Shown here: piece after piece, positions 2,191 through 38,342 of the stretch
How the letters are laid out: every line of letters begins with the position of its first letter
Numbering within the stretch: the stretch's first letter is position 1
UHGV virus genome: UHGV-1369627
Reading direction: 5' to 3' (one strand)
Origin: a virus
DNA: 49,014 bases
Made by a program: the position numbers and the translations under genes
Notes under the pieces: generated by a model
Seen by the model: only the letters and a program-made list of their open reading frames with translations
The model's database searches: none
Told to the model about the DNA's origin: nothing

Positions 2191-2219
2191 AATCTACATC
2201 AAACCACGTCATTCATCAA
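2191..2219 (-). promoter_or_regulatory. promoter TTGATG-N17-TAGATT (minus strand)
   Basis: The -10 is the reverse complement of 2191..2196. The -35 is the reverse complement of 2214..2219. Confidence 0.45.
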
Positions 2220-2625
2220 GCCCAAAATAGAATAACGTCGCTCTTTTTAGCTCCTCAAGGCCATAAGCAATAGCGCCAAAGTGACCCTCTGCAATGGCGC
2301 ACTCCAGAACCTCAATCTGCGATGGCGATACTTTTGATTTTGTCTTATCACGCCTCTTCAGTTCAATCAGGCCGCATTTATGATTAACACCGTGGGTTAG
2401 TATCACGTTGTCGCTTACACCGCTCCTGACCCCCATTTTACGGCGTTTTTCGATGAACTGCGGCCCACTCTTTGTTCCAGTCTCGTTAGGCACATGAAAC
2501 CACAGGACTTCAGGGAATCGGTATTGCATCCAAATACCATAGGCCATCTGGTCAGTTTCCTCCCTTGGACACTCCCCGCGATAACCGCTATCAAATACCC
2601 ATATTCCACTATCAAGCTGCTTCAA
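2209..2625 (-). CDS. VRR-NUC domain nuclease
   Basis: 138-aa ORF with VRR-NUC-like blocks (GVSDNVILTHG...GLIELKR). Immediately follows the SF2 helicase, a common phage pairing. Confidence 0.65.
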   Translation of the reverse strand: MKQLDSGIWVFDSGYRGECPREETDQMAYGIWMQYRFPEVLWFHVPNETGTKSGPQFIEKRRKMGVRSGVSDNVILTHGVNHKCGLIELKRRDKTKSKVSPSQIEVLECAIAEGHFGAIAYGLEELKRATLFYFGLDE

Positions 2626-2635
2626 TTTTTTCTCC

Positions 2636-4546
2636 TTAAAATTCTTTTCTGTGGATTATGTCGCGGCCTTTATCGTTAAAACGATGCGTTATGCGCTTTG
2701 GCGCGCGGATAAGACCAGTGAACGCCATGAATGCTTTTGCGTTGTGGCAATTCATGAGGTTATCAATCATATTCCTGTCTGATACGTGGTTTAGTAATCC
2801 TTTAATCTTAAACTGATTTTTAAGGTACTTCTCCTGCCTGCCAAATGGATAGAACACCTCACCGGCCCAGCCATCTTTGCCGTTTTCTTTCGTGATGAAG
2901 TAACGATAGACAACGCCCTTCTCATCTTTCGTTAGCTCAATCTTGAAATCCTTGACTTCAGTCCATTCATTATCCGTATAAGCACGCTCATTAAGCGCCG
3001 CATTTGGGTCGCGTAAAACGTGATCGCATTGACGGCAATAACGAGCTGTCGGGTCGTTCTTTGTGCCGCAACCATCATCAAAAATACGGATGCCGTGCTT
3101 GTCGAAACCACAGCGAATGAAGCTGAAAAACTCTTCGCATCGTCCATCTGGCGATGTTGCATCTTTACCAATGCATCGCCGTGCGTATGGGCTGTTCATC
3201 GTCTGGCATTTAGGGCATGGAACCTGCTCTCCGCTGCGCTTGGCGCGTTGTGCTTCTGCTTCCTCAAGAATAGGGTCTTCATACAGGCCACCAAGTTCGA
3301 ACATGGTTCCGGTAAAGTCAAGGCAAAGATGGTTTTCTTTCACCAGGCCTGCGGCAATCTGGTCTGGCTTCAACAGGCGCATCGGTCTGCCTAGCAACTG
3401 CGTCAGAAGCGTCAGGGACATTATTTTTCTCAGAATGACAGACGTATCCCAATATGGGATGTTGACACCAGTCGTCAGGCAACCGATTTGCAGCGTGTAT
3501 TTTTTGCGCCCGGTTGCCGCATCTTTCAGAGCTTTCCGTCTGGCTTTCTGCCCCATATCCTCGGTAACAATGGAATAACTGCCTTCTGGTAAATATTTTG
3601 CAGCCTCCTTGCAATGTTTTTTACCTGCGCAGGTAATGAGTACACCAAGTCTGTCGCGCGTAAGCTCCATGACTTTGAGCATTATTTTTTGCGTCAATGT
3701 ACCCTGCTTGAGGATTTCTTCCTGCATCTCTTTTAGCTGGCTATCAGTAAAGTCCTGCACGCCGTCAACTTCACTACTGGCAAACTCATGCAGATCGTAT
3801 TGCAAGTCCTCGATATCCTGGCCGCCGAAAATTGTCGGAACCAGAAATCCAAGATCGACAAGGTATTTTGTGCTGATGTTGACAATTTCATGTTTCCAGT
3901 AAGCCCCTTTTATCGACTCAACGCCGCGAAATGGGCTGCCGGTGTAGCCGATGACAATCACCTCATGCCCATACTTCGCTTTACAGCGCCGGTTAAGTTC
4001 ATTCATAATGACACCGTACTGCGTCTCTGGCTGCTCTGATATTATGTCCTGCCAGTTAACCTGATGGCATTCATCGACAAGGATGTAGCGAGGGGAAAAG
4101 TCTGATAGCAGTGATTTCGTCACGGTGCCATCATCGGCTGTCTTATCAAAAAGACCATTTATTATTGTGCCCTCCGTTCCCGCTATAAGCGGATAGGCAT
4201 ATGCTTTACGCCCAAGTGAAGCGCTAAACAGAGAGTTTTTTACGCTCAGGTTCCAAAGCTCCTCAGCATCCTGCTCAATAATTTCGCCTTGCCTTGCGAT
4301 GACAAGCCCCTCCCACCCCATATCCTGAAACCGACGGGCAATCATGGCTATCATGATGGTCTTGCCAGCGCCAACCGACGCGGTAACATAACTTGGCTTG
4401 GGCTGCTTACCAAACTTGCGGATAACTTCCGCTGTCTTTTCATATACCAGCCACTGATAGGGGCGCGGTTCAATTTCCCCGGTATGGATGCTGGCTCGCA
4501 GCTTATCCATATCCAGCTCAGCAATCATTGCATCAATTTTTTGCAT
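2636..4546 (-). CDS. SF2 DEAD/DEAH-box DNA helicase with C-terminal Cys4 zinc ribbons
   Basis: 636 aa. Walker A GAGKT. DECH box LVDECHQ. C-terminal CPKCQ...CRQCDH zinc fingers. Confidence 0.8.
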   Translation of the reverse strand: MQKIDAMIAELDMDKLRASIHTGEIEPRPYQWLVYEKTAEVIRKFGKQPKPSYVTASVGAGKTIMIAMIARRFQDMGWEGLVIARQGEIIEQDAEELWNLSVKNSLFSASLGRKAYAYPLIAGTEGTIINGLFDKTADDGTVTKSLLSDFSPRYILVDECHQVNWQDIISEQPETQYGVIMNELNRRCKAKYGHEVIVIGYTGSPFRGVESIKGAYWKHEIVNISTKYLVDLGFLVPTIFGGQDIEDLQYDLHEFASSEVDGVQDFTDSQLKEMQEEILKQGTLTQKIMLKVMELTRDRLGVLITCAGKKHCKEAAKYLPEGSYSIVTEDMGQKARRKALKDAATGRKKYTLQIGCLTTGVNIPYWDTSVILRKIMSLTLLTQLLGRPMRLLKPDQIAAGLVKENHLCLDFTGTMFELGGLYEDPILEEAEAQRAKRSGEQVPCPKCQTMNSPYARRCIGKDATSPDGRCEEFFSFIRCGFDKHGIRIFDDGCGTKNDPTARYCRQCDHVLRDPNAALNERAYTDNEWTEVKDFKIELTKDEKGVVYRYFITKENGKDGWAGEVFYPFGRQEKYLKNQFKIKGLLNHVSDRNMIDNLMNCHNAKAFMAFTGLIRAPKRITHRFNDKGRDIIHRKEF

Positions 4547-4560
4547 TTTGAATCACCAAA

Positions 4561-5082
4561 TTATTTCAATCGACCAAAATCTTTGTGGTATTTTTTAGAT
4601 GCTATTGCATACGCCCTTGCGGCTGCTTCTTTTGTGGCATGCCTTCCAAGCCATATTTTTTTATTATTAACCCATATCCAGCAAGTCCATCTACCTGTCT
4701 GCTTGCAAAAACCTACACCTTTCACTCCTGATGTGTTGTGTTTTGGGGTTCTCATGTTTCTAACATTTTCGTTAAAGTTTGCCTCTCTAAGGTTTTCTAT
4801 TTTGTTGTTTAAAGGATTCCCATCGATATGGTCTATTATTAACTCAGGCCAATGACCATGCACTAACGCCCATATTATTCTATGAACCTTTATATCAAAG
4901 CCTAAAAAACCAACCTGAAGATATCCACTTACAGTCTTTGAGCCTGCAATGGCACCACGTTTCACCCTGTTTGTTGTTGTTCTTTTCCATATGAGATTTA
5001 TTCCGTCATATGAAAAATACTCACGTAGCATGGATAATGGTATTGACCTCTCTTTTGACTTCATCAATTCGAAATCATTCAC
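4561..5082 (-). CDS. HNH homing endonuclease with AP2 DNA-binding domain
   Basis: Contains IDHIDGNPLNNKIENLR and SGVKGV...W. Paralogous to the ORFs at 16722, 24056 and 37857. Confidence 0.75.
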   Translation of the reverse strand: MNDFELMKSKERSIPLSMLREYFSYDGINLIWKRTTTNRVKRGAIAGSKTVSGYLQVGFLGFDIKVHRIIWALVHGHWPELIIDHIDGNPLNNKIENLREANFNENVRNMRTPKHNTSGVKGVGFCKQTGRWTCWIWVNNKKIWLGRHATKEAAARAYAIASKKYHKDFGRLK

Positions 5083-5114
5083 TTTACGTTACCCTCATTC
5101 AGTGTTACGCTTAA

Positions 5115-5143
5115 AGCATACAAACAGTAACAGATGGAGTCAA
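5115..5143 (-). promoter_or_regulatory. sigma70-like promoter TTGACT-N17-TATGCT for the leftward helicase operon
   Basis: -35 is the reverse complement of 5138..5143. -10 is the reverse complement of 5115..5120. Confidence 0.35.
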
Positions 5144-5144
5144 C

Positions 5145-6035
5145 ATGTTTTATTGGGAAGATATACGACAAAGGATGATTGGCAACTGGGAGGCCGCGCT
5201 ACTCTCAATAGTGAATATTGACAGGAATGTTTTTACTGGGAAGCATCAGCCATGCCCTCATTGCATGGGTAAGGATAGGTTTAGGTGGGATAACAACTTC
5301 GAAACAAAAGGTGACGGCGGCGCCATCTGCAACCAGTGCGGAAACGGGAGCGGCATCACCTGGTTAATGAAGCTGTCAGGAATGACTTTCCCAGAGTCAA
5401 TGGAGGCACTGGCCGGATTTCTCAACATGCACCCACGCGAAAAACTTGAGGCTATTAAAAAGCAACTGCCGAAGGTCAATCATGCTTCTGACTATCTGAC
5501 AGAGGCAGAAGTGGCGGCCATCATGGAAAAAGCAGGCGGCGACACCATAACCGGCAAAACCGGTGAACTGGTGGCGATACCGCTCTATATGGCTGGAACC
5601 ATGACGCCATGCAATGTAGCTTTTCTGGCAGACGATGAAAGCGTGTCATTTCGCGCGGGTTTTAGCCATGAGTACACTCGCGGAAGACTTACGCGAGGCG
5701 CGGTGACACTGATTGGTGAAAAAACAGAGTGGACATACCTAGTTGCGGATTACTTCGATGCCTGGCGAGCACACAGGCTTACCGGCGCACATGTCTGGTG
5801 TTGCTGGTCTCCTGAGAATATGTGGGAAGTTGTGCGCAATGTGAGCGATGAGCAGCGAGCCAAACTACGCTGCATCATTAATAATAATTTCGATGAGGTA
5901 TGCGCCGCCGAGAATGCAGGTCTTCCGATACTGATTACTGATGATGGTCATGATATCCGTTATAGCAGTGCCATCAGGAAAAGGCTGTATAAACCAGAAG
6001 AACTATTTGAAGCACTAAAAAACAAACCCTCCTGA
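5145..6035 (+). CDS. putative DNA primase (N-terminal zinc ribbon, Toprim-like C-terminal region)
   Basis: CPHCMGKDRFRW...CNQCGNG resembles primase zinc-binding domains. ILITDDGHD is a possible Toprim DxD. Confidence 0.5.
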   Translation: MFYWEDIRQRMIGNWEAALLSIVNIDRNVFTGKHQPCPHCMGKDRFRWDNNFETKGDGGAICNQCGNGSGITWLMKLSGMTFPESMEALAGFLNMHPREKLEAIKKQLPKVNHASDYLTEAEVAAIMEKAGGDTITGKTGELVAIPLYMAGTMTPCNVAFLADDESVSFRAGFSHEYTRGRLTRGAVTLIGEKTEWTYLVADYFDAWRAHRLTGAHVWCCWSPENMWEVVRNVSDEQRAKLRCIINNNFDEVCAAENAGLPILITDDGHDIRYSSAIRKRLYKPEELFEALKNKPS

Positions 6036-6052
6036 TGGAGGGATTTTGTTTA
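6025..6052. terminator. bidirectional rho-independent terminator
   Basis: CCCTCC-TGAT-GGAGGG followed by ATTTTGTTT. Confidence 0.65.
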
Positions 6053-6271
6053 TGGTTTTTCTGGTACTGGCATCCAGTGAGTAACATCAATTGTTACCAT
6101 GTTGTCAAGAACTCCATCAGAGTCGATGCTGCACCAAGATACATCCTGAAACCAGTGTCCTTGAAGATAAACTCCATGTAGTGGCTCATCATATTTTGGA
6201 TAAAAAATTACTTTTGTATTTTCCTCTGGTAATTTTTCACTACATTTAATCCATTTATTTTTCATCTCCAA
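6050..6271 (-). CDS. DUF551-like small protein
   Basis: 73 aa. Contains W.KCSEKLPE...VTHWMPVPEKP. Same family as the C-terminal domain of the 10285..10938 product. Confidence 0.55.
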   Translation of the reverse strand: MEMKNKWIKCSEKLPEENTKVIFYPKYDEPLHGVYLQGHWFQDVSWCSIDSDGVLDNMVTIDVTHWMPVPEKP

Positions 6272-7752
6272 CCTCTCTGTGCCGCCATATTCATGCCGAT
6301 ACCCTCAACAATCTGAGAGAATTTAATGCTCATTTTTGTCGACTCAAACTTGCTCGCATCGTTAATCCAGTAACCGCAACCGACAGCATCAATAGCTCTT
6401 GACTCCATCAATGCCTGCATTACTGGCGTGATAAGTGTTTTTGCGCCGAAATTAAAATCCTCTCCATTGGTACGAGCAATAGCTTCTGCCAGTCCTTTTA
6501 GCGACTTGGTTTTAACTACACGCTGAATTATGCTTGACTGAGGCATTGAATCATCGCGTGTTCTACCAGACAGCACGTTTTCAATGCGGTTTTTAATCTC
6601 GTTCCATCGCGCCATAGTACCAAGTTCCTCCTGGCTCTCATTCACTTTAAGCATGCTCATCACGTCAGTAAGGCTTTCGCATACAAAGCAAAAAGCCCAC
6701 ATGAGCATGGATTCTGTAATGACTCCTTTATTACCAGCAGAAAGCGCTGTTGCAACCTTTTCCACTTGCTCAAATGAACGTGATATTACAGCTCCTAGCG
6801 CAACATCATTCCGCAACTCCTCAAAACGATCGTCAAGAGATTCAGCAAGTTGCTCAACCATTGTATCTTCGTACCTCGCCACGGTTGGCGCTGATTTCTC
6901 TATCTGTTTCATCTTCTCGATAAGCGATGGCGGCGTCTTGTGACCGAATCTTTTTGCTTTCCTTGCTCGGCCATCTTTTCCTTTTATGAATATCGCACGA
7001 CCAATAAGGCCGGTGCCAATGTTTTCAGAGCAGATGATGCTTGCCAGCTTTTCAGGCGTTGAGAAGCACATCATTGAAAATATAGGGTCTTCTATCCCGT
7101 TCTGGATGGGCCATAAAATCTCTCTTTCGAGTTGCATTTCACGGCGACGATACTCGGTCTCAACAATGCCTTTATCCTTAACTTCTGCTCGCAGTTTTTT
7201 TAACTCCTTCTCCAGCAACTCCTTCGCATTAATGGCATCAAGGTCAGAGAATTTTTTCAGGCGGTCTGAATAGATTGAGAGAATTTCAGAGCCAAGCTCT
7301 GCCATATAGGTGGCGCCATTCTTTTGTGACATCACGCCAAAAAGGCCATGGCATTCATCAATAATAAATGTTGCCACTCCTTCGTGGTTTATCAGTGTGC
7401 GCCCGATATCTTTTGATGATGCTATGCGGCCAAAAACGTGCTGACCTTTGTCGATATCGCGGGCGATCATCTTGAAGTGACTTTGAGAACGGTCTTTGCC
7501 GCCGGCAGAATCAGCAATGCAGATGGTCAGCAAGTTTCCTTTCATGCCGCTCGGAGTTTTAATTTTACCTTTGCTGGCAATGACCAGTTCATGCAGTGCT
7601 GCCACAGCGCGCAACCTTGGCTGTTCTCGCACCTCACCAGCGGCGATGTCTTCAGCTATCTCACCAGCAAGCCCTGGCGGCTTGGTGATGTCGTACCAGG
7701 AATCTTTTTTGATGTCTGCTGTAAGGTCGTAAATGGTCTTTATTGCCATCAT
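6262..7752 (-). CDS. large hypothetical protein of the replication module (degenerate P-loop SAGGKD plus a DECH-like box; not a canonical helicase)
   Basis: 496-aa ORF with no overlap conflicts, in an operon with the 71-aa and DUF551 genes. Confidence 0.5.
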   Translation of the reverse strand: MMAIKTIYDLTADIKKDSWYDITKPPGLAGEIAEDIAAGEVREQPRLRAVAALHELVIASKGKIKTPSGMKGNLLTICIADSAGGKDRSQSHFKMIARDIDKGQHVFGRIASSKDIGRTLINHEGVATFIIDECHGLFGVMSQKNGATYMAELGSEILSIYSDRLKKFSDLDAINAKELLEKELKKLRAEVKDKGIVETEYRRREMQLEREILWPIQNGIEDPIFSMMCFSTPEKLASIICSENIGTGLIGRAIFIKGKDGRARKAKRFGHKTPPSLIEKMKQIEKSAPTVARYEDTMVEQLAESLDDRFEELRNDVALGAVISRSFEQVEKVATALSAGNKGVITESMLMWAFCFVCESLTDVMSMLKVNESQEELGTMARWNEIKNRIENVLSGRTRDDSMPQSSIIQRVVKTKSLKGLAEAIARTNGEDFNFGAKTLITPVMQALMESRAIDAVGCGYWINDASKFESTKMSIKFSQIVEGIGMNMAAQRGWR

Positions 7753-8966: not shown

Positions 8967-9167
8967 ATGACAAGCAAAAAGAAGGTAGCAGACAAGAAAT
9001 TTCAGGATGCAATGCAGGCAGTGCATGCTGCTGGCGAGGACAGGGTGAACTATTGCCTTAGTTTTATTCTAGGGTATCTTGAAAGCACCGGCAAAACAGA
9101 AATGCTTCACGAATGGGATGATGCTTGTATGCGAATCAAGTTATCTTCTGGCGAGCAAATTCATTAA
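8967..9167 (+). CDS. hypothetical protein
   Basis: ORF 8955..9167; likely start at MTSKKK. Confidence 0.35.
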   Translation: MTSKKKVADKKFQDAMQAVHAAGEDRVNYCLSFILGYLESTGKTEMLHEWDDACMRIKLSSGEQIH

Positions 9168-9181
9168 CAGAGAGCATAAAA

Positions 9182-9652
9182 ATGACTATAAATATTAACG
9201 AAGTTCAGGAAATTATTAAAAACCTTGAGAGCAGTGGTGAACTCTCAATTAAAGAGGAAAAATACCTCAAGGTTGCAAAGCTGTGCGTTCAGCTGGCTGC
9301 GGAGAATGTAGGCATGGATGGATTCGTCGAAGAGATGCTCGCTATCGCATGGCAGGGAGGTTTCACTGATGGCTCCGATATTCAGGAGTTAGCCCTGAAG
9401 CATGGCCTTATTAGGCAAGAAGTATATTGCGCTGATAAGCACGAAAACTGCGTGTACGACCCAGGCAATTTCGATGATGGTGATGCGGTTTACTTCCGCA
9501 TGGAACCCTCTACCACCGATCGCATCGTAGCCGGGATTAAGGCTGATGGGGTAGAGGAGTTCGCTTCGTATATTTCGCTCTACAATAGCAACGCGGAGCG
9601 CCATGCCATTGATTTTGCCAAGCAACTGCGCGAGGGAGTCAATCATGACTGA
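9182..9652 (+). CDS. hypothetical protein
   Basis: ORF 9125..9652; likely start at MTININ with RBS. Confidence 0.45.
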   Translation: MTININEVQEIIKNLESSGELSIKEEKYLKVAKLCVQLAAENVGMDGFVEEMLAIAWQGGFTDGSDIQELALKHGLIRQEVYCADKHENCVYDPGNFDDGDAVYFRMEPSTTDRIVAGIKADGVEEFASYISLYNSNAERHAIDFAKQLREGVNHD

Positions 9653-13471: not shown

Positions 13472-13497
13472 AGCCCTCATTAGAGGGCTGTTTTTAT
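13472..13497. terminator. bidirectional rho-independent terminator
   Basis: AGCCCTC-ATTA-GAGGGCT followed by GTTTTTA. Confidence 0.65.
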
Positions 13498-14028
13498 CCA
13501 TTCCATTGGCTCTGTAAGAATCATTTTGTTTCTTTTGCTAAGATTCATAACAGCAGGAATAACCTGTATATTATTGGCGCAATGCAATCCGCTTACATAT
13601 TTTGCTCTTAGTGGAATCATGTGGTCAACATGCCAATCGAAACCTATCTCCTTTGTTCTCGCTTGAGATAAAAGGTACGCCTCAGAAATAACAAATTCGT
13701 CCCATTCTGTTAATGATATTTGAGATGCCTGCCTGGACTGTGTTTTGTATTTCTTGTTTTGGTAGTTCCTTTTGCTTCTGTTTTTTTCTCTATAACTTTT
13801 GTTTAACTCTGCAATCTTTGTTGCATTATTTTTCTTATAGTTGGAGTTCTTTTTTTGTATTTTATCTTGATTTCTTCTTCTGTAATCCTGTTGAATTAAC
13901 CTCAAGCAATCTACGCAACCATAACCAATGTGTCTGTCACATTGATGACCGTTCTTGCATGTCCTGCCGGTGTTGTAGAATTTAACGCCAAGGCATATAG
14001 CGTCTTTTCTTGTTTTTGGAATCTGCAT
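13480..14028 (-). CDS. HNH endonuclease (HNHc type) adjacent to the terminase
   Basis: WHVDHMIPL...GLHCANNIQV HNH motif. Cys-rich N-terminus. Confidence 0.65.
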   Translation of the reverse strand: MQIPKTRKDAICLGVKFYNTGRTCKNGHQCDRHIGYGCVDCLRLIQQDYRRRNQDKIQKKNSNYKKNNATKIAELNKSYREKNRSKRNYQNKKYKTQSRQASQISLTEWDEFVISEAYLLSQARTKEIGFDWHVDHMIPLRAKYVSGLHCANNIQVIPAVMNLSKRNKMILTEPMEWIKTAL

Positions 14029-14104: not shown

Positions 14105-14395
14105 TTATTTGTAAAGCCAGCAATGAATCCCCGCATTGCGCATGGCAACATAAATCACGTCATCATTCACGACCGCCATCGCCACCCTGTCAGCGTCAAT
14201 CTTCTGGTGCGATGCCATAATGTCATCATAGAAAATATCGTTAGCATGCAGCCACTCATACGCATGCTTTGCCCTCATGATAAGCACATCATGCCCGGCA
14301 GAGTAGAGTGACTTAGCCAGTGCCGCGTTACCAGCAATAGCATTTCCTTCCGCATCGCGCAGCACACCATCAAGCTCAAAAATGACACATTTCAT
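14105..14395 (-). CDS. HAD-superfamily-like fragment
   Basis: 96 aa. MKCVIFELDGVL resembles HAD motif I but has Glu in place of the first Asp. Too short for a complete HAD fold. Confidence 0.45.
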   Translation of the reverse strand: MKCVIFELDGVLRDAEGNAIAGNAALAKSLYSAGHDVLIMRAKHAYEWLHANDIFYDDIMASHQKIDADRVAMAVVNDDVIYVAMRNAGIHCWLYK

Positions 14396-14421
14396 AAGAT
14401 TTCTCCGAGAGGTTTCATTTT

Positions 14422-14450
14422 AATCTACGCCATGCTAGAATCTACGTCAA
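14422..14450 (-). promoter_or_regulatory. promoter TTGACGTAGATT-N11-TAGATT (minus strand)
   Basis: The 12-mer is the reverse complement of 14439..14450. A second TAGATT is the reverse complement of 14422..14427. Confidence 0.5.
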
Positions 14451-14483
14451 GGCGCGTTGACATAACTACATCACCGGGGCATC

Positions 14484-14777
14484 ATGAAGGCGTACTCATC
14501 TTTTTCGTGGGAGCAGAAGGAGAAAATATACTCACTCGCAAGAGCTGGTGTGTCCGATGAAGCCCTGTGCGAAAGGTACGATGTGGACGAGGCCATACTC
14601 CTGCGCATGTATGATGAAGTGCTGTGTGAACTACAGCGGCGCCGTGGTTACAGTGGGCTGAAGACGATTAATGATTTCTTTCGGAATGTTGATTTAATTG
14701 GTGATGGTGATGATAAAGAAAAAGCTGCAAATGAAGATGCGCAAAGCCGCAATGGAGAAGTACACGAAAAAAATTGA
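14484..14777 (+). CDS. hypothetical protein
   Basis: 97-aa ORF. Confidence 0.4.
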   Translation: MKAYSSFSWEQKEKIYSLARAGVSDEALCERYDVDEAILLRMYDEVLCELQRRRGYSGLKTINDFFRNVDLIGDGDDKEKAANEDAQSRNGEVHEKN

Positions 14778-15117
14778 TATTAGCTTCATTGATGGCGTTG
14801 GCATGTACAATCACGCCTGCCATCTGAATGCTGTAAATCGCGCAAGAGCAGGAAACAGCGCAGCCGTGGTTGAAGTGGTTATGATTAATGATGACTCCGT
14901 GACGGCGCATTACATCAACATGCAGGCAGATGGTAAATATGTTGATTACACCCTTGGATGGCACTGGTCAGGGGCTGATTACCGATTTGTGCGATACGTT
15001 CCATTTACTGAGTGGGGAGACATAACCAGCTCACTTGAGCGCCTAAAGGCAGAACTTTGTAATCCAGTCAGCAAATGGATGCGCGCCTTTATGTTAACTA
15101 ATAACGAAATGTGTTGA
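14698..15117 (+). CDS. hypothetical protein (start uncertain; overlaps the previous ORF)
   Basis: 139-aa ORF. Internal Met codons offer alternative starts. Confidence 0.35.
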   Translation: MVMVMIKKKLQMKMRKAAMEKYTKKIDISFIDGVGMYNHACHLNAVNRARAGNSAAVVEVVMINDDSVTAHYINMQADGKYVDYTLGWHWSGADYRFVRYVPFTEWGDITSSLERLKAELCNPVSKWMRAFMLTNNEMC

Positions 15118-15125
15118 GGTGATTC

Positions 15126-15332
15126 ATGCGTGATGAAATAAAAGACCTGAGTACAAGGCTGCGTGAGCTTGAGTTCATGCAGATAATAAGAAAACTTGGG
15201 TATGAGACAACTACCGTCCCAACATGGGGGAAGGATGAAGATGGCAGGCCATTTGTATGGCATAAGCCATTTATTGATGATAGAGAGGCTATAGAAGCCT
15301 TAACCAAATTCCGCAGAGGTGGTGATTTATGA
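15126..15332 (+). CDS. hypothetical protein
   Basis: 68 aa. Confidence 0.4.
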   Translation: MRDEIKDLSTRLRELEFMQIIRKLGYETTTVPTWGKDEDGRPFVWHKPFIDDREAIEALTKFRRGGDL

Positions 15333-16721: not shown

Positions 16722-17213
16722 ATGCTTACTCAAGAAGAACTGAAACGTGTGCTCAGATACAACCATGAAACTGGTGTTTTCATTTGGATTAAATCAGTTG
16801 CGAAGCGAATAGCAGTAGGTGATGTGGCTGGAAACTTAGACCCAGCTGGATACATAAGAATAAGATACAAAGGATGCCTGTATCGGGCACACACCCTGGC
16901 ATGGCTTTACCATTATGGTGAATTCCCTTGTATGGATGTTGATCATATTGATTGCAATAAAACAAACAACTCAATAGCAAACTTAAGACTTGCCACCAAG
17001 CATGAGAATGCAACAAATAGACCGTTGCAGAAAAATAACACATCAGGAGTGAAGGGTGTTAGGTGGAACAATAGAGATAAAGTCTGGACTGCATCTTTTG
17101 TTTTTATGGGTAGGTACATTCACGTTGGAAGCTTTAAAGATAAAAATAGAGCAGCAAGTGCGATAAAAGCCGCCAGGGAGCTAACACAGAGTAACTTCAT
17201 CAACAACGGCTAA
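16722..17213 (+). CDS. HNH homing endonuclease with AP2 domain
   Basis: VDHIDCNKTNNSIANLR and SGVKGVRW motifs. Confidence 0.75.
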   Translation: MLTQEELKRVLRYNHETGVFIWIKSVAKRIAVGDVAGNLDPAGYIRIRYKGCLYRAHTLAWLYHYGEFPCMDVDHIDCNKTNNSIANLRLATKHENATNRPLQKNNTSGVKGVRWNNRDKVWTASFVFMGRYIHVGSFKDKNRAASAIKAARELTQSNFINNG

Positions 17214-29196: not shown

Positions 29197-29224
29197 AAAG
29201 GGGGCGTTAGCCCCCTTCTTTATA
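29197..29224. terminator. bidirectional rho-independent terminator
   Basis: GGGGGC-GTTA-GCCCCC followed by TTCTTTATA. Confidence 0.7.
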
Positions 29225-30004
29225 CCTTATCTCGCCATAAACCATCCATTGAAGCATATAGCACCACTCCCACTCTGTAATATCATTCCTTAGCCATCGG
29301 CTATTCTTTTTGAAATTGTACTCTGCGGGTTCAGCTTTAAGGTTGTACAGGCAGTTAACCAGTTCTGGATGTATAAGCCCATTCTTAACAAACCAGTTCA
29401 CAGGAAGAATATGGTCAATATGCCATGAACTTCTATCATCAAAGCTCATCCATGCCTCCATTGTTGACTCTATATGGTTAACAAATTCATCTTTTGAGTA
29501 ACCAAGAACTTCATCAATGCTTGAATCAGAAAGAACAGTGCCGATCTTGATATCCATTCTTTCCAGAGTCTTCCTCAGCAACCTATGGTGTGGATTGTCT
29601 ATCGCCCATTGCTTTACGTTTTGCAGTGCCTTTGCGTTACCATTTTTTGAGTAATACCATTTACGATAAATCTTCCTTTTCTTCTCCAAAAACTCCTCGC
29701 GCCTCAAGGGGTCTTCTCTCATCCTTTTGCTATATTTGGAGCCATTAAGCGACCTCCTTCTCCTGTTTTCTTCCTTTGAGTAATATTTATCATATGATTT
29801 TTTTCGGCTAATACGCTCCTTTTCCTGCCCCTCGCTTGTTGCGCGCTTGGCTCTGGTGAACTCATACAAACAATCCTTACATCTCCCTCCGCCAGCAGTA
29901 AAAAAGGTAATGCACCCGCATTTTGCGCAAGGGAGTTCAGTGCAGACAAACTGCTTTAATCCCTGCTCCCTGGCTTTAATGGCCAGCTCTTTTCTTGTAG
30001 CCAT
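29207..30004 (-). CDS. HNH endonuclease (Zn-ribbon N-terminus, HNHc C-terminus)
   Basis: WHIDHILPV motif. True start taken at MATRKEL (30004), not at the 366-aa ORF start. Confidence 0.6.
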   Translation of the reverse strand: MATRKELAIKAREQGLKQFVCTELPCAKCGCITFFTAGGGRCKDCLYEFTRAKRATSEGQEKERISRKKSYDKYYSKEENRRRRSLNGSKYSKRMREDPLRREEFLEKKRKIYRKWYYSKNGNAKALQNVKQWAIDNPHHRLLRKTLERMDIKIGTVLSDSSIDEVLGYSKDEFVNHIESTMEAWMSFDDRSSWHIDHILPVNWFVKNGLIHPELVNCLYNLKAEPAEYNFKKNSRWLRNDITEWEWCYMLQWMVYGEIRYKEGG

Positions 30005-30057
30005 AGTGTAATCCTTGCTGATTTGGTTTTGCCATCTTATCACATCAACGCGCCATG

Positions 30058-30331: not shown

Positions 30332-31150
30332 ATGGCTGTCAGGTATGAAATAAACACAACTCCAGCTGACGGAGAGGTTTTGCTTAGTGAAACCATGTCA
30401 GCAGACTGGACTGCATTGCAGGTGCAGATTGTGCCATTAAACTCTTCCGGCGGTCATGCACCATTAACAAGCGGCTCTGTTTCCGTAATGGTATCGCCGT
30501 TTGCATCTGGTGACTTCTGGATTGACGTTAACAATAATAATTATTATGGCGTAGCACTGCGACTGAAGGTGATTAAGTCGCAGCTCCCTGCTGGCGTTGC
30601 ATCTCTGAAAGTCCTGGTGTGGCGAGCTGATACCTCAGTGCCATCAAGTCAGGTTGTCGCGCAGTCCTACTCGGAGCTTGCCAATAAGCAGGGAAAGCTA
30701 TTCACCGCATCTCGTCGCGTGACCGATGTCGCTGGCGGTGCCAATCTTGACAGCATTTTTATTACCGGCTCAAAACAGGTTGTGTTTAACCAGCGCATAA
30801 TCGGATACACCGGTAAAGGTGTCGTAGCGTCAATCTACCGTGGAGCTGTAGCCACTGGTGGAACTTCTGCCGAGATTAACAACCCAAACGATGTCATCCC
30901 GCAAGCTGTGACTACGCAGTTGCTGACTGGCTCTACTGTGACAAGTGTGGGGCAACTAACGGTGGCCGCGACGTATAGTGAAGGGAACGCATCGAACCAG
31001 GGGCAGGGTAATTCACAGGCAAAACTTGGTGAGCAGGTCATCATGGCGCCTAATACTACCTATCTGTTACGCATCACGTCCCTGGATACTGCGGCGCAAA
31101 ATATCAATGCTTACGTTTCGTGGTTTGAGGATGACGCTTATCTTCCGTGA
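30332..31150 (+). CDS. virion structural protein (beta-rich, Thr/Ser/Val-rich)
   Basis: Start at MAVRYE with RBS GGGGGT; ORF 30320..31150. Confidence 0.45.
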   Translation: MAVRYEINTTPADGEVLLSETMSADWTALQVQIVPLNSSGGHAPLTSGSVSVMVSPFASGDFWIDVNNNNYYGVALRLKVIKSQLPAGVASLKVLVWRADTSVPSSQVVAQSYSELANKQGKLFTASRRVTDVAGGANLDSIFITGSKQVVFNQRIIGYTGKGVVASIYRGAVATGGTSAEINNPNDVIPQAVTTQLLTGSTVTSVGQLTVAATYSEGNASNQGQGNSQAKLGEQVIMAPNTTYLLRITSLDTAAQNINAYVSWFEDDAYLP

Positions 31151-31155
31151 TAAAA

Positions 31156-31190
31156 GAAAAGCCCCGAAAGGGGCTTTGTTTATTGTTTGT
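31156..31190. terminator. bidirectional rho-independent terminator
   Basis: AAGCCCC-GAAA-GGGGCTT with T-runs on both strands. Confidence 0.7.
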
Positions 31191-31365
31191 CCGGGTCTGC
31201 GTAGAAATTCAGTAGCTTTATGAAATCTCTTTTCCCTGAATGATTAAGATAAAATCCGGCAATTTCATTAAATACTTCATTTGATGCTTTTACAGAGAAG
31301 CCCATGTTGAGTGCGTCACGGGCTGCAATGGCCGCTTTTTTTGTTGTTTCTTTAATGCTCATCAC
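31180..31365 (-). CDS. hypothetical protein
   Basis: 61 aa; last gene of the ParB-like operon. Confidence 0.4.
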   Translation of the reverse strand: MMSIKETTKKAAIAARDALNMGFSVKASNEVFNEIAGFYLNHSGKRDFIKLLNFYADPDKQ

Positions 31366-31901
31366 TAAATCCTCATCGGCATAACGATAACTTTGGCAGT
31401 CTCGCCAGTTGGCGCACTGATGTTTGCGACGGCCGCGCTGGTGTTTCCGTTCAGTTCAAAGAGCACCGCTTCAAATTTCGGGTTAAACAGCCTCGCCAGC
31501 TTCTCAACATCTGCCAGATATTTGGCATTAAAGCCAATCTGTTCTGCTGGCGCAGTCTGCTTTGGAGTAACACGATCAATGTAAGGGAATCGGCCATTAA
31601 TCTCAGAGCAGATACCTGCGCCTACCATGATTTCATGCTCGTCATGGTAAGTAACAATACCTGTTTTGGTGTCCAGTAGCGCATGCGCATAGCGCTTGGT
31701 TGGCGACTTGCTGACAGAAACGATAACGTTATCTTTCAACTTATTTTCATGCTTACTGGCAATCATGGCGCGATGACCGTCAGTAGCGGCAACTCGACCA
31801 TCAGGCATAAAGCAAATGCCATTCAGGTAGTAACGCACATCATGTTTGGCCTGAAATATCAAAGCACCTTCAAGGAGCAACTTGCTAACTTTTAATTTCA
31901 T
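31365..31901 (-). CDS. truncated DNA polymerase III beta sliding-clamp (DnaN) homolog, about 178 aa
   Basis: Shares blocks with E. coli DnaN: KHDVRYYLNGICF...ATDGHRAMIA, GRFPYIDRVTPK, IGFNAKYLADV and C-terminal VIVMPMRI. RBS GGTGAAGGTGAAG. Start at MKLKVS within ORF 31365..31943. Confidence 0.65.
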   Translation of the reverse strand: MKLKVSKLLLEGALIFQAKHDVRYYLNGICFMPDGRVAATDGHRAMIASKHENKLKDNVIVSVSKSPTKRYAHALLDTKTGIVTYHDEHEIMVGAGICSEINGRFPYIDRVTPKQTAPAEQIGFNAKYLADVEKLARLFNPKFEAVLFELNGNTSAAVANISAPTGETAKVIVMPMRI

Positions 31902-32101
31902 TTCTTCACCTTCACCATGTGTTGTTTTGCAACCTTCAGGCATTCATCGAAAATCTTGCCCTTCTTTTCACTCTGGTTGAGCCTGTAGTGGGTAATGGCG
32001 GCCTCTATGGCCGCGTTGTCGATGCCTGGCAGTTTTTCGCGCAGGTTTTTCTCTATGAATTGTTCGGGGTTCATTACCAACTCTCCACCACGTTTGCGCA
32101 T
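31898..32101 (-). CDS. hypothetical protein
   Basis: 67 aa. Confidence 0.4.
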   Translation of the reverse strand: MRKRGGELVMNPEQFIEKNLREKLPGIDNAAIEAAITHYRLNQSEKKGKIFDECLKVAKQHMVKVKK

Positions 32102-32271
32102 TCATCATAAAATAAGAAATGCCTTGTTTTTTCTTCGTAACGCTTCATTTCAAATGCGATTATGTCCTCCTGATAGTGAATTTTATCCACCTGGCGAACC
32201 ACGCCGTCTCGCATTAGGATATGATCGCCTTCTTTTATGTTTTTTGCAGCAGTGCCAATTGTAATCATCAC
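32074..32271 (-). CDS. hypothetical protein
   Basis: 65 aa. Confidence 0.4.
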   Translation of the reverse strand: MMITIGTAAKNIKEGDHILMRDGVVRQVDKIHYQEDIIAFEMKRYEEKTRHFLFYDECANVVESW

Positions 32272-33119
32272 AGCTTCTCCAGAATCGCCAGCACTTCATT
32301 CAACTCCGCAGAAGGAAGGCGCAAAAATTCTTCTGTCTCCTGTGCCACATGGCCCTCAGCTACAACCATGTGATCTGCTTCTTTCAGCAACTGAATCAGG
32401 CGGTCAATCGGCTTAACTTTTTTGGCCTTGAGCGTTTTCGCCGTCACCTTATCTTTGCCCTGCGCTTTCGCTTCCTCAACGGCAGCATCAATAACGTTAA
32501 CGGCATCATCGCCATGCTCACGCGCCACTGCAACGGCGTTGGCATAGCTGATTTGTCCTGCGTTGATTCGCTGCTTGATGGCATCAGGCACATCACCAAG
32601 TGACAGGTGCATCTGCACATCAGAAACTGAGCGGCCTACTTTTTTGGCGATTTCTTCATTCGTCCATCCGAACCCTTTCAGGCGCACATAAGCCTTTGCA
32701 CGCTCAAGCGGGTCGAGTTGCTTGCCCTGACTGGAAGACACCATGAAGGCGATTTTATCCGCTTCATCACCGGTGAAGTCTTTGCACTCAATGCGCGCAA
32801 TTGGCACGCCGCGATCAATGGCACGCAATGCACCAAGATAACGATGCTGACCGTCAAGAATCTTAATGCGCTTTCCGTCAGTATCAGGAATAACAGTTAA
32901 CGCCGGGATTGGCTGGCCTGATTCCCAGCACTGCGCGAAGTATTCAACGTGCTGCTCATCTGCTTCGCGGATGTTGTACCCCGGCTCAAGGTAAAGCTGA
33001 TCGACAGGAACCTGATAACCTTTGTTGACCACGATTCCGCCGCGAGTTTCTTTGTCTGAGTAAATTTTTCCGAGAGATGTCATCTTTTCCTCACTTTGAT
33101 AAACAGATTGCACTGGCAA
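32268..33119 (-). CDS. ParB-like nuclease domain protein (ParB/Srx fold)
   Basis: ILDGQHR motif. HTH-like central region. Lys-rich C-terminus. Confidence 0.65.
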   Translation of the reverse strand: MPVQSVYQSEEKMTSLGKIYSDKETRGGIVVNKGYQVPVDQLYLEPGYNIREADEQHVEYFAQCWESGQPIPALTVIPDTDGKRIKILDGQHRYLGALRAIDRGVPIARIECKDFTGDEADKIAFMVSSSQGKQLDPLERAKAYVRLKGFGWTNEEIAKKVGRSVSDVQMHLSLGDVPDAIKQRINAGQISYANAVAVAREHGDDAVNVIDAAVEEAKAQGKDKVTAKTLKAKKVKPIDRLIQLLKEADHMVVAEGHVAQETEEFLRLPSAELNEVLAILEKL

Positions 33120-33203
33120 TGGCGAATCCGATAACGATTAACGCCAGCTTAATCTTGAAAATGCGCCATGCTTTCAGGTCTTCTTTGCGGATTTCGTGGC
33201 GGA

Positions 33204-33521
33204 TCATTTGGATTCTCCGAGTGCTTTGGTGATGGCAGAAACCAACTTCTCTCTAAGGTCTGGTTTCTGCTGCGACATCCAGAATCCAATCTCATCAAGT
33301 GTCGAGGTTAACGCTTCCAGCAACTCCGGCGCAGCGGCCATTATTCGTTGGTTAGCAACTTGAACCTCAACTTCAGGGTCAAACTCAACCCAACCGACAG
33401 GAATAATCATTCCATAAGACTGGTCGTCCTCTGTTGATTTTGGCCCTATTGCCCTGTCGTTATCGATAAACCACGGCCCAGGCGTACCTTTGAATTCATT
33501 CATCTTCATCACCTCTAACAT
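33204..33521 (-). CDS. hypothetical protein (Ead/Ea22-like motif ...ANQRIMAAAPELLEAL...)
   Basis: 105 aa. First gene of the leftward operon. Confidence 0.45.
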   Translation of the reverse strand: MLEVMKMNEFKGTPGPWFIDNDRAIGPKSTEDDQSYGMIIPVGWVEFDPEVEVQVANQRIMAAAPELLEALTSTLDEIGFWMSQQKPDLREKLVSAITKALGESK

Positions 33522-33531
33522 TTATTGTTGT

Positions 33532-33572
33532 TTCTACGTCATCACTATAGCGACACCCTCAATCTACGTCAA
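33532..33572 (-). promoter_or_regulatory. early promoter TTGACGTAGATT-N11-TATAGT (minus strand) with a downstream TGACGTAGA half-repeat
   Basis: The 12-mer is the reverse complement of 33561..33572. The -10 is the reverse complement of 33544..33549. A second TGACGTAGA copy is the reverse complement of 33534..33542. Confidence 0.55.
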
Positions 33573-33579
33573 CACTTTA

Positions 33580-33588
33580 TGATAAAAT
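33580..33588 (+). promoter_or_regulatory. late promoter, extended -10 TGaTAAAAT
   Basis: Upstream of the head-tail connector operon. Confidence 0.4.
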
Positions 33589-33733
33589 TAAACCAACAAC
33601 ACTCACCCCGCGCTGTTCCGTCCTGAAAAACGTAAGGCGGCGAAATTGGATATAGCAATCGGCGTTATCGTCATGGCGTTTTCGCTGGTTCAGGTGTACA
33701 GATGCTGGAAGTTCATCATTCGGAGAATAATTA

Positions 33734-34021
33734 ATGAGAGACGCGCTTCAGCACGCCGCAAACCAGATAATTAGTGGCACTGTCGGCCAGGTAATCGACA
33801 AAGCCGGTTATACATCCATCGGCACGGGTCTTGGCCTGAAGGTGGCAGAGCAGACGCCGGTCGCACAATCATACATTGCCTCAATGATCCCCCATTCGAT
33901 TACCGAGTGGGCAGCGGTAGCCTCTATACTTGGCGCGCTGTCACTGGTGGCAAAAAACCTTTTTGAGATGTGGTGGAAGATTCGGGAGAGCAAAAAGAAT
34001 GGCAGCACCGACAGCAAGTGA
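33734..34021 (+). CDS. small membrane protein (one C-terminal TM; holin-like?)
   Basis: 95 aa. Confidence 0.4.
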   Translation: MRDALQHAANQIISGTVGQVIDKAGYTSIGTGLGLKVAEQTPVAQSYIASMIPHSITEWAAVASILGALSLVAKNLFEMWWKIRESKKNGSTDSK

Positions 34022-34391
34022 ACTCGTCGCCGCCATGGCGTCAAGAGGCGTAACTATCACCACGGCAGACGCAACGGGCATCCTGTGTCTGGTGGCAAGC
34101 ATCACAGAGTGCCTTGAGCTTAATTACCCCGAGGACACATGCAGGCAGGATGCAATTCTGCTATGGGCCTCTATCCTGGTCGCCTCAAATACAGCCGGGA
34201 GATACATCACCAGCCACCGGGCGCCATCTGGTGCATCGCAGTCATTTGGTTATGGCAGCAAGCCGTGGATGGCCCTTTACAATCAGATGAAACTACTCGA
34301 TACGGCAGACTGCACAGGCGACCTTGTGGAAGAGCCTGATGGAAGTGCAAAGCCGTGGTTTCGAGTTGTCACCGGGAGTAAGTGCAGATGA
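33999..34391 (+). CDS. putative head-tail connector (gp6-like)
   Basis: Start at MAAPTAS within ORF 33930..34391. Positional and compositional call. Confidence 0.4.
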   Translation: MAAPTASELVAAMASRGVTITTADATGILCLVASITECLELNYPEDTCRQDAILLWASILVASNTAGRYITSHRAPSGASQSFGYGSKPWMALYNQMKLLDTADCTGDLVEEPDGSAKPWFRVVTGSKCR

Positions 34392-35924: not shown

Positions 35925-36001
35925 TGGTTCCCGCGACAGGATTCGAACCTGTAATCATCCGATTATGAGTCGGGCGCTTTAACCAGTTAAGCTAAACGGG
36001 A
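35925..36001 (-). tRNA. tRNA anticodon CAT (Met, or Ile2 if lysidine-modified)
   Basis: Cloverleaf folded by hand. T-loop GGTTCGAATCC. Anticodon loop CTCATAA. CCA end encoded. Confidence 0.75.
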
Positions 36002-36004
36002 ATT

Positions 36005-36081
36005 TGGTGCACCATACTGGATTCGAACCAGTTACCGATTGCTTAGAAGGCAATTGCTCTATCCTGATGAGCTAATGGTGC
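36005..36081 (-). tRNA. tRNA-Arg (TCT)
   Basis: Acceptor GCACCAT/ATGGTGC. Anticodon loop CTTCTAA. T-loop TTCGAAT. CCA end. Confidence 0.75.
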
Positions 36082-36089
36082 GCTGAATA

Positions 36090-36177
36090 TGGCGGATAGT
36101 ACAGGATTCGAACCTGTGAACCGTTTCCGGTTTATCGGTTAGCAACCGACTGCTTTCGGCCTCTCAGCCAACTATCC
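36090..36177 (-). tRNA. tRNA-Ser (GCT), class II with long variable arm
   Basis: Acceptor GGATAGT/ACTATCC. Anticodon loop TTGCTAA. Variable stem ACCG-GAAA-CGGT. Confidence 0.75.
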
Positions 36178-37584: not shown

Positions 37585-37860
37585 TCAAGGTTCATCATCA
37601 TCCTCCTCACTAATCGCAGTATCGAGTTGTCGGCGCAGCATACACAGCGCACCATGCGGCATAAACTGATTAGCCATCCCATCGAATATCTTCCGGTTTA
37701 ATTTATTATCAATGCGTGGTCTGATTGCAGACCAGCATGACCTGATTGCGCGATTTACCGGCCTGCGGTCCAGCATTGCGAGTCGCGCAGCTAACTCAAT
37801 GGTAATGAGCGCGTCAAGATACTGCTCGCAGGCGTAGCGATTTTCGTTATCCATAATCAT
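37585..37860 (-). CDS. hypothetical protein
   Basis: 91 aa. Downstream of the HNH with a 4-nt overlap. A competing ORF lies at 37416..37682. Confidence 0.35.
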   Translation of the reverse strand: MIMDNENRYACEQYLDALITIELAARLAMLDRRPVNRAIRSCWSAIRPRIDNKLNRKIFDGMANQFMPHGALCMLRRQLDTAISEEDDDEP

Positions 37861-38342
37861 TTACCATGGTTCTCATGAAAATTATACTTAACCTCCGCCT
37901 TTCTCCTTGCTTCAGCGGCCATATTTAAGTCAGAAAACAATCCAAGATGAATCTTTACGCCATCAACTTTTATGTTTGAGGCCCATTTTTTATGTTGCTT
38001 ATCCCATGAAACACCAGTAACACCTGATTTGTTTGTCACCCTGAACTTCATGTTGTGATTATTCTCTTTTGGAGTGACAAGCCTGAGGTTATCTATCTTA
38101 TTGTTTGTTTTATTGTGGTCTATATGATCAATCTGCATTCCGTCAGGAATTTTCCCATTATGCATTTCCCAGATGATGCGATGAACAAGATACTTGACGC
38201 CATAGATTCCAACAATCTTATATCCATTACCTCCTACCGCCTTCACCTCGCTTCCGATTTTCACTCTGTTTGAGGCTCTTATCTTCCAGTAAATAGCCCC
38301 ATCACAATAATAAAAAATATCTGACCAATCAGTTATTTTCAT
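37857..38342 (-). CDS. HNH homing endonuclease with AP2 domain
   Basis: IDHIDHNKTNNKIDNLR and SGVTGVSW motifs. Closest paralog of the 24056 gene. Confidence 0.75.
   Translation of the reverse strand: MKITDWSDIFYYCDGAIYWKIRASNRVKIGSEVKAVGGNGYKIVGIYGVKYLVHRIIWEMHNGKIPDGMQIDHIDHNKTNNKIDNLRLVTPKENNHNMKFRVTNKSGVTGVSWDKQHKKWASNIKVDGVKIHLGLFSDLNMAAEARRKAEVKYNFHENHGK

Follow-up and report, generated by a model that had tools for sequence, protein, structure and literature searches.

The beta sliding clamp of Escherichia coli, DnaN (P0A988; PDB 1MMI, 2POL and 3BEP), is an acidic protein of 366 amino acids (aa) composed of three domains (PF00712, PF02767 and PF02768). In this work we describe a shortened relative of DnaN encoded by UHGV-1369627, a viral genome of 49,014 nucleotides (nt) that was analysed as a whole and is called the window below. 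The protein, to which we refer as the half-clamp, has 178 aa, is basic and lacks domain I and the N-terminal half of domain III. Additionally, its models contain no helix at the place of the second helix of DnaN domain II. What it shares with DnaN are 15 of the 18 residues of the partner-binding pocket, the 148–152 loop and the C-terminal MPMR motif.

Several viral proteins are known to act as clamps or to interfere with them. Phage T4 gp45 and full-length phage DnaN homologs form closed rings, have loaders and serve phage polymerases, whereas the half-clamp comprises 1.5 domains and belongs to a phage for which we found no loader and no polymerase (the latter among open reading frames, ORFs, of at least 150 aa). 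The herpesvirus processivity factors UL42, UL44, PF-8 and BMRF1 consist of two full domains, bind their own viral polymerase, lack a bacterial-type pocket and have no sequence similarity to the half-clamp. Gp168 of phage Twort (PDB 7EVP) and MuC of phage Mu also target the interface between the clamp and its partners, but they do so by binding the host clamp, unlike the half-clamp, which appears to imitate the binding site itself. MuC enlists the host clamp for late transcription (PMC12867686). A further parallel is the monomeric beta mutant I272A/L273A in complex with delta (PDB 1JQL), which likewise is not a ring, presents the pocket and binds its partner more tightly than the ring does (PMC11139829). 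That molecule, however, is engineered and has all three domains, while the half-clamp is natural and has 1.5.

The closest entries belong to the same family, phrog_3007, and are annotations only. They include Bcep43 gp15 ("DNA Pol III b subunit fragment"), gp10 of Serratia phage Eta ("putative beta-clamp protein"), Gp04c of Kagunavirus fBC-Eco01 and the "beta clamp domain-containing protein" of E. coli prophages. These members are 27–94% identical to the half-clamp, fall into the same length class, share its deletion boundaries and show no structural difference.

Homology to DnaN and the retained pocket

The similarity of the half-clamp to DnaN far exceeds chance, and their homology is beyond doubt. 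A phmmer search against the clamps of the PDB gave an E value of 2.8e-10, TIGR00663 matched the protein with E 4e-8, and a profile of the family reached E 4e-27 against the PDB, with each match being a full-length clamp. When the family was aligned with E. coli DnaN by hhalign, the probability was 99.5% (E 2.6e-22). The original prediction had proposed a half-length clamp homolog on the basis of several short motifs, and all of them are real and present in the alignments: KHDVRYYLNG against HQDVRYYLNG of E. coli, ATDGHR common to both proteins, GRFPYIDRVTPK against GRFPDYRRVLPK, IGFNAKYLADV against IGFNVSYVLDV and, at the C-terminus, VIVMPMRI against YVVMPMRL. The E. coli sequence used here was verified against fragments 136–295 and 315–366 of the phmmer alignments.

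The profile match to clamps that the prediction had called for was found with the family profile, hhalign and TIGR00663, but the single-sequence Pfam scores (17.8 bits for beta_2 and 16.5 bits for beta_3) stayed under the gathering cut-off of 27. The equivalog cut-off of TIGR00663 was not reached either (32.6 against 137.65 bits), and the Pfam scan of the half-clamp yielded no match to the N-terminal clamp domain PF00712.

The hhalign alignment covers DnaN residues 137–253 and then 313–366, skipping approximately 254–312. Judged from this alignment, the half-clamp is domain II, the linker between domains II and III, and the C-terminal half of domain III, in agreement with the predicted absence of domain I and of the N-terminal half of domain III. 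HMMER offered an alternative in which the C-terminal third runs contiguously into the N-terminal half of domain III, unlike the jump made by hhalign. We accept the C-terminal half because the IGFNxxY and terminal MPMR motifs are conserved throughout the family, and we take the HMMER alignment to be an effect of the pseudo-repeat inside clamp domains. The protein thus has common ancestry and a common fold with the beta clamp. With its 178 aa it does not have the DnaN layout of three tandem domains in about 360–390 aa, nor does it have the two complete clamp domains per protomer found in PCNA and gp45.

Structure prediction led to the same assignment. The AlphaFold2 model of the window protein, built on an alignment of 111 sequences, has a pLDDT of 96.3 and a pTM of 0.90. 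Foldseek agrees with the assignment, since the only fold matches of the half-clamp are clamps, and the predicted structures of many phage proteins of 178–215 aa match the model with TM scores of 0.75–0.89. The order of elements in the model is a strand, a helix and three strands, then four strands, a short linker helix, and finally a helix and three strands. Only two of the helices are long, and a loop (residues 64–72) takes the place of the second helix of domain II. The same order was obtained for a Kagunavirus-type member that is 34% identical to the query (pLDDT 97.3). As the models of two such distant members agree, we regard the two-helix topology as a trait of the family, and in both models it argues against a canonical ring.

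To compare the parts of the protein, we used the pocket and dimer-interface residues as defined in a 2024 review of clamps (PMC11139829). In the window protein, identity to E. coli amounts to 15/18 at pocket positions and 28/96 at the other aligned positions (Fisher p 2e-5). The same holds for the family: among 105 members, each less than 60% identical to the query, the mean identity to the E. coli residue was 0.71 in the pocket and 0.24 elsewhere (Mann-Whitney p 3e-7). Sixteen positions are conserved in at least 80% of members, and ten of these belong to the pocket (R23, L26, T40, G42, H43, P106, Y128, M174, P175 and R177). Three more (D21, Y25 and G28) lie in the equivalent of the adjoining 148–157 loop, which in the clamp touches DNA, as known from the 3BEP structure and from work on loop mutants. 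In the equivalent of its 148–152 part, K19, D21 and R23 are conserved. At the level of sequence, both subsites (I and II) of the pocket for clamp-binding motifs are present.

The opposite is true of the ring interface. The canonical dimer contact is formed by I78 and F106 of domain I with I272/L273, E298 and E304 of the N-terminal half of domain III (PMC11139829). According to hhalign, all of these residues, as well as R103, are located in segments without a counterpart in the half-clamp. By these alignments, the family retains the partner-binding surface and drops the parts that make the ring.

The members of the family also differ from the clamp in charge. Their median isoelectric point (pI) is basic, 8.4, while that of the equivalent segments of E. 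coli DnaN is 5.8. In 79 of 111 members the protein ends exactly at the MPxR motif, as DnaN does. Many homologs in beta- and gamma-proteobacterial prophages (11 loci listed) carry a tail of 15–40 residues after MPxR, with a motif of the P-x-W/F type followed by a hydrophobic residue (TPEWV, PPAWT, PPKWA, TPDWA, KPAWA, LPEFV, TPAWL, PPEFV, PPDWV). The half-clamp of the window has no such tail.

Distribution, selection and annotation of the family

The gene was found by tblastn in 269 phage records, and 266 of the 269 copies cover at least 80% of the query. An exhaustive search of representatives clustered at 50% identity returned 1224 clusters at E ≤1e-3; among the best 150 of them nearly all are 170–215 aa long and match the query from end to end. 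With respect to the nearest ortholog, that of phage ZCKp20p, the ratio of nonsynonymous to synonymous substitution rates (dN/dS) is 0.12. This value, together with the wide spread and the fixed length, indicates a gene under purifying selection and not a decaying fragment. The suggestion of a decaying moron or pseudogene, made in the original prediction, is therefore refuted. The prediction had also asked whether close relatives carry the ORF; they do.

Phages with the gene include the Roufvirus and Skatevirus types, Serratia phage Eta, Dhillonvirus, Kagunavirus, Naesvirus (Bcep43) and many Vibrio phages. Prophages carrying it were found in Escherichia, Citrobacter, Pseudomonas, Shewanella, Pandoraea, Achromobacter, Bordetella, Massilia and others. 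In complete E. coli genomes the half-clamp is present in 60 out of 5426 (about 1%), where the NCBI pipeline labels it "beta clamp domain-containing protein". Of the 80 loci returned by the genome scan, 56 were genuine dnaN genes, which were separated from half-clamps by ORF length. A homolog search with a profile of seven sequences added little beyond the close relatives already known, and the diversity of the family came from the search of 50%-identity representatives.

Some members are longer. In two homologs of 302 aa, one from Paucimonas lemoignei (5926–6834 of the retrieved locus) and one from a Colwellia metagenome-assembled genome (6001–6909), the half-clamp is fused at the C-terminal side to FtsK-gamma, a winged-helix domain that binds DNA (Pfam E 3e-26 and 4.5e-25). 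Matches of 214–292 aa that were examined for fusions contained the central clamp domain at most. Two long matches considered as domain fusions, P0240 and P0262, turned out to be false positives with WD40 repeats.

The family is already present in databases. The phrog_3007 profile (190 positions) matches residues 1–178 of the half-clamp with E 3e-55, so the protein is a full-length member of this group of about 170–215 aa. Existing labels are inconsistent: next to "DNA polymerase III beta subunit", "beta clamp domain-containing protein" and "DNA Pol III b subunit fragment", phrog_3007 itself and many RefSeq records (NC_071151, NC_071156, NC_021534 and others) bear the label "RusA-like Holliday junction resolvase". 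We reject the RusA identity. A Pfam scan up to E 10 returned two clamp domains and a chance match to Cache only, and all structural matches are clamps. The RusA label looks like a propagated misannotation.

PADLOC defence models matched neither the half-clamp nor its five neighbours in the cassette described below. A full-text literature search found no published functional study of the family, in line with the earlier remark that no such phage function had been described, and the genome paper of a Kagunavirus treats the gene as an ordinary processivity or sliding clamp (PMC9825357). The family thus appears to be functionally uncharacterised. What appears to be new is its definition as a derivative of the beta clamp that is constant in length, is reduced to the pocket and has lost the ring interface.

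The locus and its neighbourhoods

The window is essentially the whole genome of a small siphophage. Klebsiella phages ZCKp20p, ZC2 and 6991 match it at about 92% identity, and the Roufvirus phages pYD38-A and pIS4-A at about 90%; phages of this type, including the Klebsiella relatives, are related to the Skatevirus group (PMC11990801). PHROG and Pfam searches of the ORFs of at least 150 aa identified a RecE-like exonuclease, a superfamily 2 (SF2) helicase, two primase-related ORFs and SSB, as well as terminase, portal, capsid and tail genes and several HNH endonucleases. None of these ORFs was recognised as a DNA polymerase, which agrees with the original description of a phage with a primase and helicases but no polymerase of its own.

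The predicted 178-aa ORF exists and is read from the minus strand, as the last but one of six ORFs that form a cassette on this strand (33521 to 31180) between rightward head genes (Table 1). Its start codon shares the sequence ATGA (31898–31901) with the stop codon of the ORF before it. The ribosome-binding site, described earlier as very good, is a good but not a perfect Shine-Dalgarno sequence. An alternative in-frame ATG at 31943 would give a protein of 192 aa and is the start used by many database entries. We prefer the 178-aa version because homologs of 178–179 aa, namely those of Serratia phage Eta and of Symbiopectobacterium and Atlantibacter prophages, lack the N-terminal extension.

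Table 1. Coordinates of the half-clamp gene, the other ORFs of its cassette and the associated signals (positions in the window)
Feature	Coordinates	Strand	Remarks
Sigma-70-like promoter TTGACG-17-TATAGT	33544..33572	-	10/12 consensus positions; based on consensus match alone
First cassette ORF, 105 aa	33204..33521	-	phrog_1273, unknown function
ParB/KorB-like protein	32268..33119	-	phrog_1033 E 1.6e-86; Pfam HTH_ParB E 4e-11, KorB E 3e-6
Cassette ORF, 65 aa	32074..32271	-	no family match
ORF upstream of the half-clamp, 67 aa	31898..32101	-	phrog_4439, unknown function; no Pfam match; translationally coupled
Shine-Dalgarno-like AAGGTG	31907..31912	-	in GAAGGTGAAGAA, six nt upstream of the half-clamp ATG; direct sequence reading
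Half-clamp gene	31365..31901	-	178 aa and stop, MKLKVSKLL...VIVMPMRI; DnaN homology, AlphaFold model, phrog_3007 match
Last cassette ORF, 61 aa	31180..31365	-	no family match
Bidirectional intrinsic terminator	31158..31177		AAAGCCCC-loop-GGGGCTTT, T runs on both strands

Pfam, PHROGs and PADLOC suggested no function for the four small ORFs of the cassette. The promoter candidate is the sole such site within 30900–34100, and the terminator closes both the cassette and the convergent rightward gene. Early expression of the cassette, driven by the host polymerase and in line with the early operon of the original prediction, is plausible from this arrangement. Residues 169–174 of the ParB/KorB-like protein read QMHLSL, a hexamer of the type by which Hda or Pol IV bind the clamp. 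In the phage Eta ortholog (5167–5988 of the retrieved locus) the counterpart is QLLAF, shifted by one residue. As the two sequences are situated within the helix-turn-helix (HTH) domain, they may be due to chance.

Other features of the window were also recorded. Scattered through it are five endonuclease genes, three of them paralogs of the HNH type (phrog_99) and two resembling endonuclease VII (4561–5082, minus; 16722–17213, plus; 37857–38342, minus; 13480–14028, minus; 29207–30010, minus), which suggests a heavy load of homing endonucleases. Primase functions are split between opposite strands (5145–6035, plus; 6262–7752, minus): one ORF is a zinc-ribbon N-terminal part of a primase, and the other is a 496-aa "DNA primase" (phrog_33132) without a Pfam match. 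Three tRNA genes (Met-CAT, Arg-TCT and Ser-GCT; 35925–36177, minus) lie within the structural region. In the structural region of the close relative ZCKp20p there is a gene for a TnpB-family RNA-guided endonuclease (14165–15295 of the retrieved locus).

In other genomes the gene is often found next to replication functions. Serratia phage Eta has the half-clamp between a ParB-like gene and a helicase gene, and an Atlantibacter prophage has it in front of genes for an SF2 helicase and a primase, in that order; in both, half-clamp, SF2 helicase and primase genes, of the types present in the window, form one operon. One metagenomic half-clamp gene is followed by a replication gene of the lambda O type, and elsewhere the half-clamp adjoins genes for a DnaQ-like exonuclease, SSB or a methylase. 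Clustering of the neighbours at 31 half-clamp loci gave a ParB-like gene at 5 loci, an SF2 helicase and a C5 DNA methylase at 4 each, a primase and a DnaQ-like exonuclease at 3 each, and a repressor of the CI/LexA type at about 10. The DnaQ-like (RNase_T family) 3′-5′ exonuclease genes lie in three prophages at 2573–3187, 5380–5940 (Colwellia, directly upstream of the half-clamp) and 2193–3104 of the retrieved loci. The clamp pocket is known to bind the epsilon subunit of Pol III.

In E. coli RMDEC332 the 189-aa homolog (9001–9570 of the retrieved locus) is encoded in the early-left part of a lambdoid prophage. Its gene lies between that of a LexA-family repressor and xis/int, directly after a gene with an ORF6N domain.

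Four unrelated phage lineages have the half-clamp gene inside the head-morphogenesis module but in the opposite direction of transcription: EP23 (5998–6510), Bcep43 (4977–5558) and fBC-Eco01 (4965–5486; all in retrieved loci) and the cassette of the window. The gene is solitary in Bcep43 (Naesvirus) and fBC-Eco01 (Kagunavirus), while in the window it is part of six ORFs. In Shigella phage EP23 (Dhillonvirus) it is paired with gene p07, which encodes an Nmad5 (nucleotide-modification-associated domain 5) protein (6592–7356 of the retrieved locus; E 2e-58).

Possible roles of the half-clamp

We propose that this family of phages and prophages derives from the bacterial beta clamp and has been trimmed to the platform that forms the pocket. 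In the window, the half-clamp would be produced from a host-type promoter within a small leftward cassette and could serve as a free-standing pocket for the QLxLF-type clamp-binding motifs of host replication and repair proteins. Both the alpha and the epsilon subunits of Pol III carry such motifs. In this phage without a polymerase, the half-clamp would most likely be an adaptor by which phage DNA, or the phage's helicase-primase machinery, is connected to the Pol III core of the host or to a different enzyme with such a motif.

Recruitment of a motif-bearing host enzyme, at least in phages without a polymerase, is the reading that we tentatively prefer, at a probability of roughly 40%. It is supported by the conservation of the pocket, the linkage to replication modules, the fusions to DNA-binding domains and the basic charge. 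A fusion to FtsK-gamma is what one would expect of a pocket module that needs a DNA tether. The data establish homology, architecture, the conserved pocket, the lost dimer interface, purifying selection and the linkages to other genes. We infer that the pocket still binds clamp-binding peptides, that its partner is host Pol III or some other protein with the motif, and that the outcome is recruitment rather than inhibition.

Several observations weigh against recruitment. The equivalents of pocket positions R176, L177, V344, V360 and M364 vary across the family. The pocket is also the best-conserved part of true DnaN, and folding of the shared sheet could explain part of the signal. Clamp-binding motifs at the termini of the phage's own proteins were found in spurious overlapping ORFs only, and the sole match in a genuine gene is the internal QMHLSL of the ParB-like protein. 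An abundant free pocket would compete with the host clamp for the very Pol III that this phage needs. Additionally, Dhillonvirus EP23 and Kagunavirus have a family-A polymerase of their own (for Kagunavirus, PMC9825357), so recruitment of Pol III is not a universal role of the family.

These polymerase-owning phages fit better with a decoy, a somewhat unlikely alternative, because inhibiting host functions makes more sense for them than recruiting. Here the pocket would titrate host proteins (candidates are Hda, MutS/MutL, translesion polymerases and the delta subunit of the clamp loader) off the host clamp and thereby shut down replication control or repair. The conservation of the pocket applies equally to this explanation, and the early-left position in E. 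coli prophages, between repressor and xis/int, is a site of host-modulating genes. Delta has an affinity for monomeric beta that is about 50-fold higher than for the dimer (PMC11139829). Phages without a polymerase, however, rely on the contact between Pol III and the clamp, and an indiscriminate decoy would harm them; moreover, the operons with helicase and primase and the FtsK-gamma fusions point to work on DNA. As for delta, the loop of beta that it contacts in the 1JQL complex presumably falls within the deleted half of domain III. Among the three ideas of the original prediction (poisoned heterodimers, sequestration of clamp-binding proteins and a decaying gene), sequestration fits best, because the pocket is the conserved part.

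Less probable, and in our opinion doubtful, is a ringless DNA-binding accessory factor with a clamp fold, similar to UL42, in which the pocket would persist mainly because the fold requires it or because it serves an unconventional partner, for example the neighbouring ParB-like protein. The basic pI and the conserved K19, D21 and R23 of the DNA-contacting loop are consistent with it, as are the ParB-like genes at 5 of the 31 loci and the QMHLSL and QLLAF sequences of their products in the window and in Eta. Yet the exposed residues of the pocket are the best conserved, which maintenance of the fold alone explains poorly. The ParB-like motifs, situated in the HTH domain, do not keep their register, and for most members of the family the ParB-like neighbour is absent.

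A true sliding clamp of new stoichiometry seems improbable. Protomers of 1.5 domains would have to pair through their orphan half-domains or assemble with host beta. Given the internal pseudo-two-fold symmetry of clamp domains, two half-domains could in principle rebuild one domain, and both the tightly conserved length and the frequent ending at MPxR, as in DnaN, would suit such an assembly. On the other hand, without the second helix of domain II the models leave the inner layer of the canonical 12-helix ring incomplete, all known ring-closing residues are absent, and some members need an added DNA-binding domain. In a specific and still less probable version, four 1.5-domain protomers, together six domain equivalents, would form a two-faced ring with pockets on both faces, loaded onto phage DNA without the dimer interface of the host type. 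If true, it would be a fourth clamp architecture beside the three-domain dimer, the two-domain trimer and the C-clamps of herpesviruses.

Dead heterodimers with host DnaN, the poison-subunit idea of the original prediction, are very improbable, as both halves of the interface (I78 and F106; I272, L273, E298 and E304) are missing from the half-clamp by hhalign and by the residue definitions of the review (PMC11139829), and the phage depends on a functional clamp in its host. The halved length and the database label might suggest a dead remnant of a captured dnaN gene or a RusA-type resolvase, but both can be dismissed in view of the low dN/dS, the near-full-length phage copies, the approximately 1224 clusters with the same boundaries, a Pfam scan without a RusA match and fold searches that return clamps only.

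The present analysis corrects the RusA misannotation and the uncritical description of the gene as an ordinary processivity clamp. Little is understood about the way in which phages lacking a polymerase, virulent or temperate, take over the host replisome, and the half-clamp family gives a tangible entry point to this problem. It occurs in hundreds of phages, including the E. coli genera Skatevirus, Dhillonvirus and Kagunavirus, which are represented in the BASEL collection. If the half-clamp binds clamp-binding motifs, it would represent a new class of phage effectors that imitate the clamp rather than attack it. In that case, it could reveal which host partners are important during infection and would provide a monomeric 20-kDa scaffold for the screening of pocket ligands.

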